Source of the DNA: a virus
IMG/VR virus record: IMGVR_UViG_3300010236_000005
Location: 1-37,254 of that record
Reading direction: 5' to 3' (one strand)
Length of the DNA stretch: 37,254 bases
Below are positions 8,444 to 37,254 of the stretch, piece by piece. The position numbers and the translations under genes are program-made. The notes beneath the pieces were generated by a model. That model ran no database searches. It saw nothing but the letters and a program-made list of their open reading frames with translations, and was not told where the DNA came from. Numbering within the stretch: the stretch's first letter is position 1; every line of letters starts with the position of its first letter.

Positions 8444-8465
8444 GATTAGGTGTGGAATCGAGATG

Positions 8466-8497
8466 GTCAAGTTAAGAATTGCACATTGTCAAGTTAA
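8466..8497. repeat. 10-bp direct repeat GTCAAGTTAA x2 (8466..8475 and 8488..8497), 22-bp period
   Basis: Exact repeat read in the sequence. Operator-like spacing of two helical turns. Confidence 0.6.
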
Positions 8498-8520
8498 TCG
8501 ACACTTCAGAATTAGTACAT

Positions 8521-8597
8521 AAAGTGTATCAATTCTAAAGCATACGAAAAAACGTATAAAAAAGTATAGTAATTCCAAAGCATACGGAGAAACGTAT
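8521..8597. repeat. Two about 37-bp direct repeats (40-bp period), each with a CATACG-N6-CGTAT(G/A) hairpin
   Basis: The cores aattctaaagcatacgaaaaaacgtat (8531..8557) and aattccaaagcatacggagaaacgtat (8571..8597) match at 24 of 27 positions. Confidence 0.7.
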
Positions 8598-8630
8598 GGT
8601 AAAGAAACAGAAGCTACTTAAAAATTAAGG

Positions 8631-8699
8631 AATTTGTGTGTATCCTGTAATAGAAACCACATAAATTTGGCGTGTTTTATGGAGTAAGATACACAAATT
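8631..8699. repeat. Inverted repeat AATTTGTGT(GT)ATC / GATACACAAATT enclosing 43 nt
   Basis: 12 bp of complementarity with a 2-nt bulge, checked base by base. Confidence 0.6.
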
Positions 8700-8829
8700 A
8701 GGCCTAAATTGTACATATAGGTACAAGATGGGTAATTGAAGATTGACTAGGGACACTTAGTGAGTCTTGAATACTCAAGCTCTTTACAAACTGGAGTAAA
8801 CAACTAGAGACTAGAAACGAGGTGAGGAC

Positions 8830-9069
8830 TTGTCTAAGAATAACAAGCACGATTGGAAGAAAGTTGTTAAGCAAGAGCAAAGCTATATTTGCCCTGTGTG
8901 TGGTAAAAAGGGAACAGATAAGTCACTTAATATCCATCACAAACGGCCAAAATCTAAAAATGGGAGCAATTCACGAGGAAATGTCGTAGCATGGCATGTC
9001 TGGTGCCACAGGGATTATCACTCTATGTGGGGAAACCATATATCAGATGATTTTGGAAATCCAGTTTAA
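8830..9069 (+). CDS. Small HNH endonuclease
   Basis: CPVCGKKG...LNIHHKRPKSKNG...NVVAWHVWCHRDYH. TTG start preceded by GAGGTG. Confidence 0.8.
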   Translation: MSKNNKHDWKKVVKQEQSYICPVCGKKGTDKSLNIHHKRPKSKNGSNSRGNVVAWHVWCHRDYHSMWGNHISDDFGNPV

Positions 9070-9075
9070 AAGAAA

Positions 9076-9140
9076 GGGGGAGATATATTTTTATTTGGAG
9101 GAACATAACTCTAATTATATAACCTCCCCCTCGTATTTTT
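9076..9140 (+). terminator. Possible intrinsic terminator after the small HNH gene
   Basis: GGGGGAG (9076..9082) pairs with CTCCCCC (9124..9130), and an AU-rich stem extension follows. A T-run at 9135..9140 lies 5 nt after the stem. The loop is large. Confidence 0.35.
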
Positions 9141-9148
9141 GATATAAT
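9140..9148 (+). promoter_or_regulatory. Extended -10 promoter TGATATAAT, 5 nt upstream of the ATG at 9154 (leaderless configuration)
   Basis: TATAAT ends at 9148 and the ATG starts at 9154. No Shine-Dalgarno sequence lies between them. Confidence 0.55.
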
Positions 9149-9153
9149 TCCTT

Positions 9154-9786: not shown

Positions 9787-9853
9787 TCCGTCACATTTAA
9801 GTATACTCCCCCTTCTAATCCTATAACATATTACTAAGACCCTAGATTTTTAG

Positions 9854-9882
9854 TTGACAAGTTTTTAAAAGTTTTGTAAGTT
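9854..9882 (+). promoter_or_regulatory. Sigma-70-type promoter: TTGACA (9854..9859), 17-nt spacer, TAAGTT (9877..9882) preceded by TG
   Basis: Read directly, inside non-coding island A. Confidence 0.45.
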
Positions 9883-9888
9883 ATATTT

Positions 9889-9971
9889 ATGAAGAAGTTC
9901 AGGACAATTTCAAAAAAGAATAATGACATAGGGAGGTGGTTTTCAGTCCTGAACTCACGCCTCCCTTTTTT
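9889..9971 (+). ncRNA. Candidate short transcript (about 80 nt) between the island-A promoter and an intrinsic terminator
   Basis: Predicted start near 9889. A 10-bp perfect pairing joins 9896..9905 with 9946..9955. The terminator stem is 9931..9938 / 9958..9965, followed by TTTTTT. Confidence 0.3.
9931..9971 (+). terminator. Rho-independent terminator (GGGAGGTG ... CACGCCTCCC plus TTTTTT)
   Basis: 8-bp stem (one G-U), 19-nt loop and a 6-T run, checked base by base. Confidence 0.6.
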
Positions 9972-10097
9972 ATTATTCAACTACTTTCCAGCTGGTCTAA
10001 GACAGGGGCTGGGTTGTACCTATTTTCACAGAGGTTTCCAAGTAAGACGGGTAAAAGCTGCCTTTATGGTGAGCTAACGGCACTGCTCTCTTTGAAA

Positions 10098-10125
10098 TTG
10101 ACACATGCTTGTACAGTAGTAAAAT
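10098..10125 (+). promoter_or_regulatory. Near-consensus promoter TTGACA, 16-nt spacer, TAAAAT
   Basis: Read directly. It would give a leader of about 245 nt before the ATG at 10379. Confidence 0.5.
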
Positions 10126-10172
10126 AGTGCAAGTGAACAGAATAAATAGCGAAAGCGACCTGTTAATACACT

Positions 10173-10374
10173 GAGGAGAAAGAGAGACTAAAGGGTTAAG
10201 GGTTCTTCTGCCCTCCGACATACTGGTAGAGCCAGTCCCTGAAGTGAAGTGAGGAAGCTCGAGTTTTCGGTTAAGTTTCCAAGATAGCTAGTTTAATTAT
10301 AGGAAGTAGTTAAGCTAGAAGATTTAATATTATATTCCTGTGGTCTATTTACTGAGACTAGAGGAGAAAGAGAG
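10173..10374 (+). repeat. 14-bp exact direct repeat GAGGAGAAAGAGAG (10173..10186 and 10361..10374)
   Basis: The second copy is the Shine-Dalgarno region of the HNH gene at 10379. The first copy is an orphan 188 bp upstream. Confidence 0.7.
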
Positions 10375-11711: not shown

Positions 11712-11739
11712 TTGACACGCCACTTGCATATGCTATAAT
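11712..11739 (+). promoter_or_regulatory. Consensus promoter TTGACA, 16-nt spacer (containing TG), TATAAT
   Basis: cTTGACAcgccacttgcataTGcTATAAT read directly in a 76-bp intergenic spacer. Confidence 0.7.
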
Positions 11740-11774
11740 TCTATTAAACATATTAAATTATTAACTAAATAAAT

Positions 11775-11993
11775 ATGCAAATACTGCTTAACAAAAGGAA
11801 CCACAAGATGATGCTTGTGTCTCACAAAGACGAGGTATCAATGGTGAGTTGGGTTCCTGGTCAGTCCGCAAAGGACAAGTTTATCACAGGAGTTAGGACA
11901 GAGATTCTAGGAGAGAAGGAAGCACCAGTCTTTTTAAGAAGATTTGTGAGGATCCTTCAAGGTAACGGATATAAGATTAGTTTTGAAAAATAA
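11775..11993 (+). CDS. Hypothetical protein
   Basis: 72-aa ORF downstream of the consensus promoter. Confidence 0.45.
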   Translation: MQILLNKRNHKMMLVSHKDEVSMVSWVPGQSAKDKFITGVRTEILGEKEAPVFLRRFVRILQGNGYKISFEK

Positions 11994-11995
11994 CA

Positions 11996-12325
11996 ATGAG
12001 TATACCAAAAGAGTTTATACAGAGTATACAGGGGAAGGAGTTTGTTAAATACGAGGGTTTACTAGACCTCTTCCATAAGAACGGAGGACAATCAATCACC
12101 ACAGAGTTAGTAAGTAAGAAGTTAGGAGAGGAGACGTTCTTTATATTCAAAGCAACAGTATCTGGAGAGAGAGGACTTTACGAAGGATACGGAGATGCTT
12201 GTAAAGGAAATGTAAACTCAATGATTGTCAAGCACATGATGAGAATGGCTGAGACAAGAGCGAAGGCTAGGGCATTAAGAGACTATAACAACATAGGCAT
12301 AGCCGCTGCTGAGGAGTTAGACTAA
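11996..12325 (+). CDS. Hypothetical protein; the C-terminal helix AETRAKARALRDYNNIGI is reminiscent of DNA-binding helices in Rad52/Sak-type annealing proteins (speculative)
   Basis: 109-aa ORF. The similarity is recalled motif resemblance only. Confidence 0.3.
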   Translation: MSIPKEFIQSIQGKEFVKYEGLLDLFHKNGGQSITTELVSKKLGEETFFIFKATVSGERGLYEGYGDACKGNVNSMIVKHMMRMAETRAKARALRDYNNIGIAAAEELD

Positions 12326-12348
12326 TTTAAAATAATCGAGGAATTAAA

Positions 12349-12543
12349 ATGAAAACTATAAAACAACAGTTCGCAGAAGAGATAGCTAAGTTCCATAGGG
12401 AGTATGGCTATAATCAGAAGTTAAGAGACCAGATACAGAAAGATTTAAAAGACCAGGATCAGACAGAGATGTGGGAATTAGAGGACGCAATAGCAGACTT
12501 TAAAACTAAATTTAATCCTTACACAAATGAAGAATATCTTTAG
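12349..12543 (+). CDS. Hypothetical protein
   Basis: 64-aa ORF preceded by AATCGAGGAA, 7 nt upstream of the ATG. Confidence 0.5.
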   Translation: MKTIKQQFAEEIAKFHREYGYNQKLRDQIQKDLKDQDQTEMWELEDAIADFKTKFNPYTNEEYL

Positions 12544-13216
12544 GGATAAGTTAGGAAAGTTTAAGTCTTTGAAAATCAACTTACTAGACGGGCAAAGAAG
12601 AGGTGAGGTTGTATTTAGAAGAGTGTTTTTGTTAATAGTTCTTTACATAATAGTAATGCTTGTATTGAAATTAGTAACTACTAAACCAGAAGAGCAAATG
12701 GAGATTAAAGAGGTAGAGGCAGGGGAAAGGATAGTTTGGGAAGGCGATCAGAAGATAAGATACACAGAAGACGGAGAGAAGAGATATATATACCAGGATT
12801 ATGTCCCTAGTCCCGAAGAGGCAGAAGAAGGGGTTGAAGTTTCAGGCAAGGGAATAGTTGACGACAGCGTTAGAGAGTATATTAAAAGTTACGGAGGGAA
12901 GATAGACGACGGCTACCTATCTCTTTTAAGAGAACACTGTAGCGAGGAAGCAGTAAAGGTAGTCGTTGCTGTCTCAGTAGCAGAGACCAGTATGGGTAAG
13001 AATACAGACAAGCAGAGTAATTACTGGGGATATTTTTACAAGGGGGATAGACAGTATGACCCAAGTAGGGAGGAGATGGCGAGGGTTATATGTGCAGGGA
13101 TAGAAGGTCATTATATGGACGTGGCGGATAACTACAATAGTGCTAGAAAGTATACCGGGGGAGACAGGACGGCCGTCTGGATGAACAATGTTAAGGTAGC
13201 CCTTGCTCAGATGTAG
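12527..13216 (+). CDS. Membrane-anchored hypothetical protein (one N-terminal TM helix)
   Basis: VFLLIVLYIIVMLVLKLV hydrophobic segment followed by a soluble domain of about 170 aa. No motif recognised. Confidence 0.5.
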   Translation: MKNIFRDKLGKFKSLKINLLDGQRRGEVVFRRVFLLIVLYIIVMLVLKLVTTKPEEQMEIKEVEAGERIVWEGDQKIRYTEDGEKRYIYQDYVPSPEEAEEGVEVSGKGIVDDSVREYIKSYGGKIDDGYLSLLREHCSEEAVKVVVAVSVAETSMGKNTDKQSNYWGYFYKGDRQYDPSREEMARVICAGIEGHYMDVADNYNSARKYTGGDRTAVWMNNVKVALAQM

Positions 13217-13238
13217 TTTTAATTTAGTATAGAGATTT

Positions 13239-13811
13239 ATGAAAGAAGTTTGGAAAGAGGTTTTTGATAACAAGTATTACCTAGTGAGTAACAAAGGGAG
13301 GATAAGAAGTCTGTTTACAAATAAGGAAAGAAGTCCGTTTACAACTAAAAAGGGTTACAAGAGGGTAGGTCTTTATTATTACGAAAAGGGTAGGGATGAG
13401 GGGGAGTTAGATAAGAGAGGAAGAAAGAGAAAAACGCTGAAAAGATATGGGATGGAGGGGGTCCAGAAGAACAAGTTGGTTCATCAGTTAGTGTTGAGGA
13501 CTTTTACAAAAAAACCTGAGTGGGCGACGATGGTAAATCATAAGGATGGCGATAAAAAGAATAATTCTCTTGAGAACCTGGAGTGGTCAACTAATTCTAG
13601 GAATATGAGGCATGCTTATAAGAACGGGTTGAATAAGAGGAGGAGTGGGGAGGAGTCGGGGAATAGTCGTTTAAAGATAGAAGAAGTTAGGGAGATTAGG
13701 AAGAGGATAAAAGAAGGAGATTCAGATACAACGATAGGAAGAGACTACGATGTTACTGCGGCCAATATATATAGAATACGGAAAGGCCAGACCTGGAAAG
13801 GTTGGGAGTAA
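13239..13811 (+). CDS. HNH homing-endonuclease-like protein (NUMOD4-like N-terminus, HNH_3 core, C-terminal HTH)
   Basis: WKEVFDNKYYLVSNKGRIRSL; VHQLVLRTF...VNHKDGDKKNNSLENLEWSTNSRNMRHA; C-terminal GRDYDVTAANIYRIRKGQTW. Confidence 0.85.
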   Translation: MKEVWKEVFDNKYYLVSNKGRIRSLFTNKERSPFTTKKGYKRVGLYYYEKGRDEGELDKRGRKRKTLKRYGMEGVQKNKLVHQLVLRTFTKKPEWATMVNHKDGDKKNNSLENLEWSTNSRNMRHAYKNGLNKRRSGEESGNSRLKIEEVREIRKRIKEGDSDTTIGRDYDVTAANIYRIRKGQTWKGWE

Positions 13812-13821
13812 CGATCGCACT

Positions 13822-14280
13822 AGAGAGTATGTAGCTCTTTACAACTAGGGGATAGGCCGAAGGTGAGGCCGATTTGGGAAAGTGGGTCTTGGGCTGAATA
13901 ATCAATAGGCTCAAACTATCCCCTGAGACATGGAGGGGAAATAGACCATCAAATTAGTAATTGGACTTCCCTGTCCAAACCCTAACTCTACTCTCTGTAG
14001 GGAATAGGGAGTACCTAATCAGTATTCATAAAAACCTATCCCTACAAGGTAGAGAAAATAAGGTGCAATTCCTTACCCCTCCAGAACAGGCTCACAAGGT
14101 CTCTAGGCAGTATTCCTTGTGGGTCTATCCGATGGTCTTGGCTTCACCTGTTCTGTTTTTACCTTTACAGACAGGAGGCGAGGGCTATCGCATAGGCTTA
14201 GATAGCTGAGTATAGTTGGTTGAGTTCTGGGCATAAGCCGATAAACCGAAGCGGGACACCGATTGCCAACCGACTATGCT
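13822..14280 (+). ncRNA. Candidate large structured RNA (about 460 nt), or an iteron-bearing DNA element, in non-coding island B
   Basis: Nested and serial perfect or near-perfect stems: 13822-29/13989-96 (8 bp); 13847-55/13916-24 (9 bp); 13997-14008/14035-45 (11 bp with a bulge); 14082-90/14147-55 (9 bp) enclosing 14093-99/14115-21 (7 bp); 14184-89/14201-06 (6 bp); 14209-22/14267-80 (14 bp with 2 G-U). No credible ORF. Confidence 0.35.
14082..14160 (+). terminator. Possible terminator-like element: branched 9-bp stem CAGAACAGG/CCTGTTCTG followed by TTTTT
   Basis: Stem and T-run read directly. The 56-nt loop with an inner hairpin makes it atypical. Confidence 0.3.
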
Positions 14281-14310
14281 GAGTAATTTAAAATTAAAAC
14301 AATAGAGTAT

Positions 14311-14583
14311 ATGGAGAAGAAGGAGGTTTATGAGATTGTATTCCTTAATGAGGACTGTGATACATTCTGGGTAAGTGAGGATGATGTTTTGGATGAAGAG
14401 GGGGCATATCTGAAAGTGGTTGAGATGTGTATTGAAATTGGTATTGACTTGGAATACTATCCAACTCCTCGGTCGTTGAAGATATTAAATGGACATTGGG
14501 AGCCAAGAGGAGGAGACCCTGTAGACGGAGAATTGTTTGTAGAGAAAGACGGAGAAGATATATGGTATAGATTTAATAGTTAG
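14311..14583 (+). CDS. Small, strongly acidic hypothetical protein
   Basis: 90 aa. By my count about 24 Asp/Glu against 8 Lys/Arg. Confidence 0.5.
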   Translation: MEKKEVYEIVFLNEDCDTFWVSEDDVLDEEGAYLKVVEMCIEIGIDLEYYPTPRSLKILNGHWEPRGGDPVDGELFVEKDGEDIWYRFNS

Positions 14584-14605
14584 TTAATTTTATTTATATA
14601 GAGAT

Positions 14606-14791
14606 ATGGAGAAGAAAGAGATAATTTGGATATGTGCAGAGTGTGGTAAGAAATACGGAAACAGAGAGTGTGGCATAGCAACTTGGCACGAAGATATTTG
14701 TGATATTTGTGGTAAGAAAACATTGGTAACAGAACCAAGGGATTTTGGATATATAAATAAAAAGAAGTTATCTAAATTAAACAATAAGTAA
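14606..14791 (+). CDS. Zn-ribbon protein
   Basis: CAECGKK...CDICGKK double CxxC. Confidence 0.55.
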   Translation: MEKKEIIWICAECGKKYGNRECGIATWHEDICDICGKKTLVTEPRDFGYINKKKLSKLNNK

Positions 14792-14907
14792 TATGTGGTG
14801 TACAGGTGGATTGCCAGATAAAAATTGGTTTTGGGATGGAGTTAAAACTGCTTCTAATATTACACACACAATAGAGTTTACGGTTAATTTATTAAACAAA
14901 TAATAAT

Positions 14908-15126
14908 ATGGATAAGAAAAGTATGGATGAGGAAATAGAGAAGATAGGGAAAGTCCGAAAGTTGATTGTGGCAAAGCATGGTAAAGAAATACAGAAGAAG
15001 ATAGATGTTGTTGGTGCTATTAAATGCCCTTATTGTAAAGGAGATATCTATTATGGAATGGCAAATAGTATAAATGGACATATTCATGCTTTTTGTGAGA
15101 ACGGGTGCGTTGATTGGGTAGAATAA
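14908..15126 (+). CDS. Small Cys/His metal-binding protein
   Basis: CPYCKG...HIHAFCENGC. Confidence 0.5.
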   Translation: MDKKSMDEEIEKIGKVRKLIVAKHGKEIQKKIDVVGAIKCPYCKGDIYYGMANSINGHIHAFCENGCVDWVE

Positions 15127-15147
15127 TTAAATTAAATAAATAAGTAT

Positions 15148-15345
15148 ATGGAGAGAGAAGACAACATATTGACCAACAAGAAGATAAGTGCGGAGAATAT
15201 AGAGTGGGGGGAATACGGCGAGAGGGTTGACAACGACTATTACAAGAGTTTACAAAAGGATTTAACAATACTTAACATAGCATTTGGGATGTCCCTTCTG
15301 ACTCTGTTTGTTATGGGTATTTTAATTGTTACAGTGTTAATATGA
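15148..15345 (+). CDS. Small tail-anchored membrane protein
   Basis: C-terminal AFGMSLLTLFVMGILIVTVLI. Confidence 0.45.
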   Translation: MEREDNILTNKKISAENIEWGEYGERVDNDYYKSLQKDLTILNIAFGMSLLTLFVMGILIVTVLI

Positions 15346-15716
15346 CCAGTTATCCAATAGAACTGAAGAACTACAACAGGAGAGCGGATCGCAGTATATC
15401 CTTCAGGGCAGACTCTCTTTTAGAAATAGGGAGCAAGGAGATAGCCAAGATTGATGGACACATAGGAGATGTAGGGTTTTTAGTTTTAACAGACGCTCAT
15501 AACCTAGACAATATTGATGTAGACGAGATACTAGAAGGACTTCCGGAGAATGACCTGTATGACAACCACAAGACTCCAAGTCAGAGGTTGAGGAATGTGT
15601 TGTATGTGAGGCTAGAACAGAAACTAGGAAGGAAGCCAGAGAAAGAGGAGTTTGCTATTTATTACAAGAATCAAATGGAGGGGCTGATAAATAAGTTTAA
15701 AGAGGAATTAGAATGA
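15342..15716 (+). CDS. Hypothetical protein
   Basis: 124-aa ORF, ATGA-coupled at both ends. Confidence 0.5.
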   Translation: MTSYPIELKNYNRRADRSISFRADSLLEIGSKEIAKIDGHIGDVGFLVLTDAHNLDNIDVDEILEGLPENDLYDNHKTPSQRLRNVLYVRLEQKLGRKPEKEEFAIYYKNQMEGLINKFKEELE

Positions 15717-16126
15717 GAGAGATTAAATTCAGGGTGTGGAGTTCAGAGTCTAAGAAGATGTATTTACCTAAGAAGGGTTGTGATTTCCTAGTAAGGATTG
15801 ATGGGGAATACTTTGTAGACGAAGATATAGTTGAGAATGTAGGACTAATATCAGTAAAGAGAGAGGACTATATTCTTATGCAATACACAGGACTAAAAGA
15901 CAAGAGTGGTCAGGAGATATACGAGTTGATGGAATTAAATGGAAAATATAAGGTTGTTTACATAGCACCATCATATGTCTTGTATGATATATCAACTGGT
16001 GATATAATAGAGTATGAAAAACAAAACAAATATGAGATTACTAGAGAATACTCGCCGTTACAGAAGAACGAAGAAAGGTGTATTGACGAATATATATTAC
16101 AAACAAAAGGAAAGAAGTATGATTAA
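15713..16126 (+). CDS. YopX-family protein
   Basis: IKFRVWSSESKKMY...LMQYTGLKDKSGQEIYE matches the YopX signature. Confidence 0.8.
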   Translation: MREIKFRVWSSESKKMYLPKKGCDFLVRIDGEYFVDEDIVENVGLISVKREDYILMQYTGLKDKSGQEIYELMELNGKYKVVYIAPSYVLYDISTGDIIEYEKQNKYEITREYSPLQKNEERCIDEYILQTKGKKYD

Positions 16127-16541
16127 AGGATATCCAGAACCAAACTATACACTTGGTGATTTGCACAATAAGTATTTAACAGATGGTAAATTTTCCAGGT
16201 TATACAATGAGTGGGTAAGAAGTGGATATCAAAAACAATATAAGCCAACGCTAGATAGAATTGATTGCAAGAAGCCATATTCATTAGATAATATACATCC
16301 GCTAAGTTGGGCAGAGAATAGGTATAAACAAAGGTGGGAGTTAAAAAGAACAAGGGCTAGAAAGGTGTTTATGTTGAAGGGGGATAATGTGGTTAAAGAG
16401 TTTAATAGTGTTACCGAAGCAGTTCGGAAGACGGGGCTACACCAGGGAAATATAAGTAGTTGTTTAAGTGGGAAAAGAAAGACAACTGGTGGCTACAAAT
16501 TCTCTTATGAGAACCCTAATTTGTTAAAGGAGGAGAAATGA
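16014..16541 (+). CDS. Degenerate HNH-like homing-endonuclease-type protein with a NUMOD1-like C-terminal DNA-binding motif
   Basis: LDRIDCKKPYSLDNIHPLSWAENRYK; VKEFNSVTEAVRKTGLHQGNISSCLSGKRKTTGGYKF. The long form overlaps yopX by 113 nt. An alternative ATG lies at 16119. Confidence 0.55.
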   Translation: MKNKTNMRLLENTRRYRRTKKGVLTNIYYKQKERSMIKGYPEPNYTLGDLHNKYLTDGKFSRLYNEWVRSGYQKQYKPTLDRIDCKKPYSLDNIHPLSWAENRYKQRWELKRTRARKVFMLKGDNVVKEFNSVTEAVRKTGLHQGNISSCLSGKRKTTGGYKFSYENPNLLKEEK

Positions 16542-20305: not shown

Positions 20306-21612
<1,307 letters not shown>

Positions 21613-21615
<3 letters not shown>

Positions 21616-37155: not shown

Positions 37156-37254
37156 TGGTATAATTATATAAGAGTATCGAGGGCATTTATTTGTTACTAA
37201 GAAAGAATGAAAATAACCGTTAGGCCTAGAGACTCTCTAAGTGCTATTCTCAAG
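37156..37254. repeat. Exact 99-bp terminal duplication, copy 2 (includes a truncated second copy of the LysM gene start at 37207..37254)
   Basis: Identical to 1..99. The ATG at 37207 repeats the ATG at 52. Confidence 0.95.

Follow-up and report, generated by a model that had tools for sequence, protein, structure and literature searches.

A conserved, structured RNA island headed by a boxA-like motif in an uncultured SU10-like phage lineage

The DNA analyzed here, hereafter the window, is the 37,254-nucleotide (nt) virus record IMGVR_UViG_3300010236_000005 of IMG/VR, taken at its full length. Between an HNH_3/NUMOD4 gene (13239-13811) and the next gene (start at 14311), this phage genome leaves a gap of 499 nt (13812-14310), which encodes a strand-specific, conserved structured RNA on the + strand. 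Judged by searches of RNA families and genomes, the RNA appears to constitute a phage-specific family new to Rfam 15. A boxA-like motif stands at its 5' edge, and we favor, at a rough probability of 0.55, the interpretation that the gap represents an island of untranslated RNA, whose transcription on the + strand proceeds under Nus-factor (boxA) antitermination.

Results

The gap folds on one strand and lacks a conserved reading frame

The + strand of the gap has a minimum free energy of -185.6 kcal/mol (z = -8.19), a stability reached by 0 of 100 shuffled sequences, whereas the - strand folds with a z score of -0.41. When the whole window was scanned with a sliding frame of 200 nt, the lowest + strand z score (-5.7) was that of positions 14101-14300. 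The asymmetry stems from G-U pairs and is indicative of RNA, not DNA. An initial annotation, made from the letters of the window, had listed seven helices in the gap and held that so many long helices were unlikely by chance, a view that the shuffled controls bear out. All seven are present, five as perfect Watson-Crick helices and two with the bulge or G-U pairs recorded for them. GC skew, about +0.5 in the flanks, drops to about 0 in a manner confined to the gap interior; elsewhere the coding strand is richer in G than in C. The annotation's statement that the gap has no credible open reading frame (ORF) also holds: the sole ORF (13961-14209, 82 residues, TTG start) spans an insertion that relatives lack, and gene callers found no conserved ORF in the gap of any relative.

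Relatives of the locus were collected as contigs encoding homologues of the upstream protein, by pattern scans and by an alignment-driven scan of IMG/VR and GTDB genomes. About 35 distinct related loci (given L numbers below) were gathered. In nearly all of them a gene-free stretch of 100-600 nt follows a hydrolase-like gene and folds preferentially on the + strand, and this gene-RNA order is kept in relatives with 28-94% protein identity.

A modular core is maintained by compensatory substitutions

Comparison of the window with these loci resolved the island into the following features.

13834-13844, + strand: boxA-like motif GCTCTTTACAA, a candidate NusB/S10 loading site at the original end of translation
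13845-13927, + strand: domain M1, a three-way junction composed of P1, a junction strand and two inner hairpins
13845-55/13916-27, + strand: P1, the closing helix of M1
13856-63, + strand: junction strand of M1, GCCGAAGG
13930-14087, + strand: window-specific insertion of 158 nt that splits the core between M1 and P2, with boundaries ambiguous by 2-5 nt
14092-14122, + strand: hairpin P2, TCACAAGG/CCTTGTGG, with a 15-nt loop
14106-11, + strand: conserved GGCAGU in the P2 loop
14123-14197, + strand: long hairpin P3, stacked directly on P2
14123-28/14192-97, + strand: P3a, GTCTAT/ATAGGC
14130-39/14181-90, + strand: P3b, followed by a G-G mismatch
14141-45/14175-79, + strand: P3c
14147-56/14167-75, + strand: variable apical hairpin of P3
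14206-14283, + strand: optional module M3, a 14-bp stem around conserved ACCGAAGC (14245-52) and GAUUGCC

RNAalifold assigned 53 pairs to the full core, 22 of them compensatory, in an alignment of the window (minus its insertion) and eight relatives. For M1, nine sequences gave 21 pairs with 14 compensatory. The strands of P1 vary yet stay complementary in relatives (for example, AGGGGGAG/CUCUCCCU), while the junction strand is conserved as AAYCCGAAGNAA. In a 13-sequence alignment, P2 keeps every pair, three with compensatory changes, and P3 has 21 pairs, 10 of them compensatory, with 94.9% of cells paired. The apical hairpin of P3 covaries between L003 and L004. The M3 stem shows four compensatory pairs; the module is present in L003, L004, L006, L034 and L036 and missing from L002, L009, L016 and L029. 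Overall, the 3' half of the island (14086-14292) is 96% identical to L003 and 90% to L004.

P2 and P3 together withstood two sets of controls. In a MAFFT alignment of eight sequences, 95.7% of cells were paired, as opposed to at most 47% with partners slid, and the covariation score was 0.383 versus 0.151 for shuffled alignments (0 of 500 as high). Extension to 13 sequences gave 95.5% of cells paired (at most 44% in slid controls), 13 of 29 pairs changed on both sides and a covariation score of 0.433 versus 0.180 (0 of 500). Separate covariance models were built for P2-P3 (R1) and for M1 (R2). R1 found exactly one copy per locus, including window 14081-14201 at 125 bits, and also recovered more distant copies in L034, L036, L051 and L052. 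R2 matched window 13844-13927 (42 bits, E = 1.8e-7).

More distant loci, which we call type 2, are laid out as boxA, a small hairpin or tRNA-like unit, P2 (loop UGGGGCAGUU) and P3 (CUUAUCC.../...GGAUAAG). Here P3a covaries, CUUAUCC/GGAUAAG being replaced by CUAAUCC/GGAUUAG in L045. This layout and the P3 variant support both the pairing of P3a and the stacking of P2 on P3.

Apart from boxA, no element is conserved as widely as the hairpin with a GG(G)CAGU loop. Of 36 relatives, 27 have a hairpin with a GG[CU]AGU loop in their islands, compared with a background rate of 29 per 191 kb (0.15 per kb), and several further cases were recognized by manual reading. No target of the GGCAGU loop was evident on the + strand of the window, where ACTGCC occurs just once. 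Over both window strands, ACTGCC/GGCAGT numbers 4 occurrences versus 12.2 expected from shuffles, and one of the 4 is the P2 loop itself.

Covariation in relatives, which the initial annotation had named as the check on its helices, sorted that list. Compensatory substitutions were found in 13847-55/13916-24 (P1), 14093-99/14115-21 (P2) and 14209-22/14267-80 (the M3 stem). Three of the remaining helices lack such support. Helix 13822-29/13989-96 joins a coding-sequence relic to the insertion; helix 14082-90/14147-55 has a 5' strand that straddles the insertion end and competes with the local hairpin 14147-56/14167-75; and helix 14184-89/14201-06 clashes with the strongly covarying P3b. The seventh, 13997-14008/14035-45, sits inside the window-specific insertion, which relatives lack. 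Thus the annotated idea of a large structured RNA on the + strand stands, on the evidence of its strand-specific fold, G-U pairs, compensatory changes across 13 independent relatives and a boxA-type signal at the 5' edge. The RNA is not a single nested fold, however, but a modular composite of boxA, M1, an inserted tRNA-shaped unit, P2/P3 and M3.

The RNA is absent from Rfam and was found in phage contigs

Rfam 15 at gathering thresholds, its riboswitch, ribozyme, intron, GOLLD/ROOL/HEARO, tmRNA, RNase P and Y RNA families included, gave no match in the window, so the search that the annotation had proposed assigns the gap RNA to no family. With E up to 10 the models returned noise, the best sub-threshold match being Tymo_tRNA-like (16.8 bits, E = 0.76). 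Across 27 related loci, genuine tRNAs alone scored with Rfam. ARAGORN, including its intron, low-stringency and transfer-messenger RNA modes, called nothing in the window. GenBank phage records contained no relative by DNA or protein, exact-sequence look-up of the window's own proteins yielded no record, and a 20-mer from the insertion had no match in IMG/VR or GTDB genomes.

A scan of 185,579 species-representative genomes turned up neither type of core in cellular DNA. It yielded only phage-sized contigs from the bins of Dojkabacteria, Patescibacteria, Saccharibacteria or other metagenome-assembled genomes (MAGs), plus chance matches. The type-2 core pattern gave the same outcome, with no cellular or rrn-linked copy and only phage contigs in MAG bins and chance matches. 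A first loose core pattern had a single match, L005, which fell by chance in a coding region. A wider pattern produced true matches in L025, L026, L028-L030 and L033, and chance matches in coding DNA in L024/L031 (lpxK), L027 and L032. We also discarded the idea that the RNA is more conserved than the gene upstream, as overall core identity (60-80%) is similar to gene nucleotide identity (65-90%). Evidence of mosaicism comes from L002: its hydrolase-like gene shares 90% nucleotide identity with that of the window, its adjacent core RNA only 71%, and it has no M3.

A boxA-like motif marks the start of the island and of its units

The published boxA consensus, GYTCTTTAANA, was derived for gamma-proteobacteria (PMC5725501). 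The window motif GCTCTTTACAA agrees with 10 of 11 positions of this consensus, which, being gamma-proteobacterial, may not be that of the host. Perfect matches occur at the corresponding site in relatives. Across the loci, (U)AG-YUCUUUA(A/C)AA precedes every unit. Of 34 loci, 16 have GYTCTTT within 0-7 nt past the stop codon, and in 27 it stands at the head of the island, in some cases behind a small ORF or HNH gene that was inserted. Strict (11/11) consensus matches on the + strand numbered 15 in 30.9 kb of island zones versus 3 in 190 kb elsewhere, an enrichment of approximately 30-fold; the - strand had 1 in the full 221 kb. As a control, each of the 5,426 Escherichia coli genomes proved to contain the E. 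coli rrn leader sequence with GCTCTTTAACAA, and in the one E. coli match that was opened, this sequence lay 73-145 nt upstream of annotated 16S rRNA.

Modules are shuffled, and a slot accepts tRNAs or tRNA-shaped units

The order of the modules is permuted in L034 (1539-1694) and L051 (1001-1183), where P2-P3 comes right after the gene and M1 lies 3' of P2-P3. The AUAGGC tail, which is a P3a strand in loci of the window type, serves in these two loci in the closing stem of M1. M1 is missing from L036. In L023 (3748-4307), the core is cut after GGGGGUCUAUCG, that is, after P2, by approximately 470 nt of inserted DNA with its own boxA, ORF and tRNA-shaped units; a diverged P3, GGUUUUAUCGAUAC.../...GUAUCGCAAAAGCC, follows the insert.

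The 158-nt insertion of the window is missing from L002, L003 and L004, where its flanks are joined directly. Alone, it folds as a tRNA-shaped four-way junction (z = -5.48) with an acceptor-like stem (GGAGGGG 13932-38/CCCCUCC 14076-82) and a T-arm-like hairpin (AAGG-UGCAAUU-CCUU, 14060-74), but with no recognizable D arm. Neither ARAGORN nor the Rfam tRNA model called positions 13930-14087 a tRNA, even when introns were allowed for and thresholds lowered. The islands of L004, L016, L018, L019, L023, L040, L055 and L062 contain comparable tRNA-shaped units with UGCAA loops, placed either behind the leader motif and ahead of P2 or at other island positions, and none of these was called as a tRNA. 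Genuine tRNA genes (Met, Thr, Pro) fill the same slot in L019, L040, L041 and L046. In L040 (3100-3700) the order is boxA, GGGCAGU hairpin, tRNA-Met, boxA, a tRNA-shaped unit like that of L019, boxA and one more structured unit, so that every RNA gene of this array is set off by a boxA. Occupation of the slot by true tRNAs as well as tRNA-shaped units identifies the site as the stable-RNA locus of this phage family.

An HNH gene was inserted between the hydrolase-like gene and the RNA

In the window, the RNA is separated from the hydrolase-like gene by the following two features.

13239-13811, + strand: HNH_3/NUMOD4 homing-type endonuclease gene (Pfam HNH_3, 2.8e-9; NUMOD4, 4.7e-8)
13814-13834, + strand: 21-nt relic of the 3' end of the hydrolase-like gene, ATCGCACTAGAGAGTATGTAG (...IALESM*)

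The hydrolase-like gene itself (12527-13216) encodes 229 residues and has 63 homologues of 208-264 residues, which are full length; it is therefore complete and not an exon. Its protein profile weakly matches the phage cell-wall hydrolase structure 8yxk of the PDB (E = 3.8e-4). The relic, which lies between the HNH stop codon and the RNA, is identical to the true gene end in L029 and thereby reveals the HNH gene as a homing-type insertion. The HNH gene inserted itself into the final codons of the hydrolase-like gene and supplied a new 3' end in exchange. The HNH gene is missing at this site in L004, L006-L016, L023, L029, L030 and others, and there the RNA directly follows the hydrolase-like stop codon. 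The initial annotation had speculated on a link between nuclease and RNA; the presence of the RNA without the HNH gene in most relatives, together with the relic, speaks against such a link.

Five HNH-type ORFs (8830, 9154, 10340, 13239 and 16014) are scattered through the 37-kb genome. One, the I-HmuI-like gene 16014-16541, overlaps by 113 nt the end of gene 15713-16126, which shares a short DNA stretch with a YopX-like gene of Anoxybacillus phage A403.

The island lies inside a transcription unit

The window is a complete phage genome of approximately 37.15 kb (~37,155 bp), as judged from the identity of bases 1-99 to bases 37156-37254 (99 nt), and is either terminally redundant or circularly assembled. 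All of its genes are on the + strand. The evident promoter-like motif of the phage, an extended -10 element TGNTATAAT, has 15 copies on the + strand and 1 on the - strand. The interval from 11731 to 16000 is free of such copies, which places the island inside a transcription unit. A scan for sigma-70 and terminator consensus sequences gave no excess. Copies of TGNTATAAT include those at 9140, 16000, 20303, 21613 and 32359. Five copies end 5-7 nt upstream of a start codon, a spacing that suggests leaderless mRNAs in this phage. Most window genes have no Shine-Dalgarno sequence, and TCGAGGA occurs upstream of some instead.

Other islands and neighboring genes

Two further gene-poor islands were noted. 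One (8444-9153), with + strand z scores down to -4.7, contains a tandem 40-nt repeat (8521-8600) with a CATACG...CGTATG hairpin in each copy. It also carries an identical copy of the boxA-like GCTCTTTACAA (8779-8789), followed 40 nt on by a 79-residue HNH-like ORF (8830-9069, TTG start). The other (9787-10339) is flanked by two HNH genes and has a promoter-like TTGACA...TATATT near 9855, a terminator-like hairpin (GGGAGG...CCTCCC, then T6) at approximately 9931-9975, and a + strand z score of -3.6 in the structured stretch downstream. Models R1 and R2 had no match in island 9787-10339.

Several protein-coding features were also recorded. In a predicted N6_N4 DNA methylase (20317-21615), profile positions 1-220 of the Pfam match are spread over residues 20-410, so that the enzyme carries an unassigned insertion of approximately 170 residues. 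Small basic or zinc-ribbon proteins of the phage are encoded at 14606-15126. In L003 (1971-2099) and L004 (2561-2689), a 42-residue ORF with a Pfam NRDD (anaerobic ribonucleotide reductase) match follows an exonuclease-like gene and precedes 0.5-1 kb of non-coding DNA; the matching place in the window has just a 19-codon ORF. A TnpB-like gene (OrfB_IS605/Cas12f-like TNB) is encoded at L018 5459-6619, approximately 1.8 kb downstream of the RNA island.

Discussion

Recruitment of NusB-S10 by boxA is a known countermeasure to Rho in rrn operons and lambdoid phages (PMC12360218). The island is approximately 0.5 kb long, free of ribosomes and higher in C content than the remainder of its strand, and such a stretch would be an expected target of Rho. 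In the process we propose, boxA on the nascent RNA would recruit host Nus factors (NusB-S10), RNA polymerase would come to resist Rho-dependent termination, and the polymerase would cross the untranslated RNA such that downstream genes of the same unit are still expressed. Nus-factor binding and the anti-Rho function are predicted from the motif and its placement. Stable RNA or RNAs may accumulate from the island, and P2/P3 may act in trans or while bound to polymerase. Several observations weigh against this interpretation and temper our confidence in it. The window boxA deviates from the consensus at position 9 (C, not A); boxA is missing from the island start in L036, L052 and the permuted loci L034 and L051; and a boxA before every 100-200-nt unit exceeds the needs of antitermination and could mark a promoter or processing site. 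The host, moreover, is deduced only from MAG bin labels (Patescibacteria/Dojkabacteria), which are weak evidence.

In a different explanation, the leader motif serves each small RNA gene as its own promoter or RNA-processing signal, and the stable RNAs arrayed in the island are made independently of one another, without a role for Nus factors. Recurrence of the motif before every unit, even single tRNAs, its near-constant distance of 2-12 nt to the first stem, the -10-like TA(C/A)AA(T/C) within it, and the UAG that often precedes it even where no ORF ends are all in accord with such a signal. Nonetheless, 15 island copies agree with the published boxA consensus at every position, a conserved -35 element is lacking, and the evident promoter motif of the phage is a different sequence, TGNTATAAT, that is strongly biased to the + strand and placed before genes. 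In relatives without the HNH gene, the motif abuts the stop codon, where a signal protecting against Rho is expected. A more general promoter role was rejected because YTCTTTWMAA is not enriched in the window overall. We therefore regard a promoter or processing signal as rather unlikely. Regulation in cis by a riboswitch-like attenuator is improbable. Here, M1 would be an aptamer for a ligand or protein and P2/P3 a platform that toggles between two exclusive pairings and controls read-through downstream. M1 does form a three-way junction whose junction strand, AAYCCGAAGNAA, is conserved, and GUCUAUC (14123-29) can pair with upstream GACAGGC or downstream AUAGGC, all three segments being invariant in window-type cores; a U-rich run and then a start codon follow P3 in L002, L009 and L029. 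However, the downstream genes vary among relatives, M1 comes after P2-P3 in L034 and L051 and does not occur in L036, the window tolerates 158 nt between M1 and P2, and covariation of P3a in type-2 relatives favors one fixed fold. No Rfam riboswitch matched. The shuffling of modules in L034, L051, L036, L023 and the window argues in general against a simple aptamer-plus-platform design.

A further proposal is that the island is a Y-RNA-like module in which YCCGAAG binds Ro60/Rsr and the adjacent tRNA-shaped unit mimics tRNA. YrlA RNAs, some of them phage-encoded, have GNCGAAN0-1G near the 5' end together with a tRNA-like domain (PMC4201824). GCCGAAG at 13857-63 fits this motif, as does YCCGAAG in relatives, although so short a motif is weak evidence; ACCGAAG recurs at 14245-51, and the adjoining insertion is tRNA-shaped with a T-arm-like hairpin. 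Against this, the motif comprises just 6-7 nt and is by prediction unpaired within a junction, no tRNA-like unit accompanies M1 in most relatives, no ORF exceeding 230 residues lies within 4 kb, no TROVE Pfam match was found in 30 scanned window proteins or in locus annotations, and Infernal matched no Rfam family with E up to 10. A Ro60-binding module is therefore very improbable. We give next to no credence to an element acting as DNA, namely the iterons or replication origin that the initial annotation had considered on account of GGGATAGG/CCTATCCC repeats in both orientations at 13848, 13917, 14000 and 14035. Two of these four copies are the opposing strands of P1, and the other two those of a helix inside the insertion; the P1 strands covary in relatives, and the second pair belongs to an insertion that relatives lack. 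Folding is strongly strand-asymmetric, and the gap has neither an AT-rich unwinding region nor same-orientation repeats. The iteron reading thus dissolves into complementary helix strands. Equally negligible, in our estimation, is that the gap holds a self-splicing intron, an RNA partner of the HNH nuclease or a decayed gene. The neighboring HNH gene is of I-HmuI type, and Intron_gpII matched weakly on the - strand (E = 2.1). But no intron model matched on the + strand, the RNA starts past the stop codon of a gene that is complete in 63 homologues (which also rules out a group I intron), and most relatives have the RNA without an HNH gene. As for gene decay, gene callers report no conserved ORF in the relatives' gaps, and substitutions keep base pairs, not codons.

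Antitermination through boxA is accordingly the interpretation we retain. A bolder extension of it can be offered tentatively, and we incline against it as it stands: boxA with P2(GGCAGU)/P3 might form a new phage-specific class of polymerase-modifying (nut/put-like) RNA in podophages apparently infecting Patescibacteria (the candidate phyla radiation, CPR). It would double as a landing pad for shuffled mobile cargo, including M1, tRNA-shaped units, real tRNAs and homing endonuclease genes, in a modular, boxA-punctuated 'RNA operon' without a cellular counterpart.

The findings add a well-supported structured RNA family outside Rfam 15, from an uncultured SU10-like phage lineage without relatives among GenBank phages, with a predicted Nus-factor signal sitting exactly where translation ends and a long untranslated RNA starts. 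If the proposed function is true, phage stable-RNA/tRNA islands would join rRNA operons, lambdoid early operons and CRISPR arrays as settings of boxA-type antitermination. If the hosts are Patescibacteria, the island would offer an entry point to transcription control in CPR, a group without a genetic system. The permuted modules and the insertions tolerated at helix junctions represent a natural experiment in RNA modularity. Homing endonuclease genes lie beside conserved RNA because such genes target the most conserved DNA, and adjacency does not signify partnership.

Known systems resemble the island in part. The rrn antitermination complex (rrnTAC: NusA, NusB, NusE, NusG, SuhB and S4) involves the same motif, GCTCTTTAACAA in E. 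coli rrn (consensus GYTCTTTAANA), with boxA on the transcribed strand heading a long structured untranslated RNA; repetition of boxA before internal units recalls rrn boxA in the 16S-23S spacer beside tRNA genes. Unlike in rrn, the phage boxA lies within a protein-coding transcription unit right after a stop codon, the RNA that follows is not rRNA, boxA recurs before units as short as one tRNA, and Nus binding is a prediction. CRISPR arrays reportedly also have boxA at their head, where it prevents premature Rho termination. There, too, boxA starts a long untranslated transcript rich in repeats or structure, but the cargo of the phage island is structured or tRNA-like RNA and not CRISPR RNAs, and boxA is repeated within the array. 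Lambdoid nut sites, in which boxA is joined by an N-bound boxB, share a phage boxA on nascent RNA, a hairpin with a conserved loop downstream (here GGCAGU) and a site between gene modules of a unidirectional transcript. They differ in that lambda boxB lies 8-9 nt past boxA and has a GNRA-like pentaloop, whereas the present hairpin is 45-270 nt downstream with a loop of 9-15 nt; in the window, it is P1 of M1, not a nut-type boxB, that follows boxA. No N-like protein was identified, and the phage element is ten times larger.

The island resembles YrlA in having a short CGAAG-type motif beside a possible tRNA mimic, and YrlA, too, has phage-encoded examples (PMC4201824). YrlA differs in that the island has no Ro60/TROVE gene nearby and no covariance-model match, its motif is in a junction, and its tRNA-shaped unit is optional. 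The tRNA cluster of phage T4 combines tRNA genes with the stable RNAs 'species 1 and 2' and the homing endonuclease SegB. It is comparable as a phage locus where tRNA genes stand alongside stable structured RNAs and as a hotspot for free-standing homing endonuclease genes. The T4 cluster is not known to be led by boxA; it has no sequence or structural similarity to the island, whose RNAs are larger, modular and shuffled between relatives. Finally, the put RNAs of phage HK022 are two adjacent stem-loops that act in cis on polymerase without boxA or Nus factors. P2 and P3 are likewise two adjacent stem-loops within a phage operon, for which an action in cis on polymerase is proposed.

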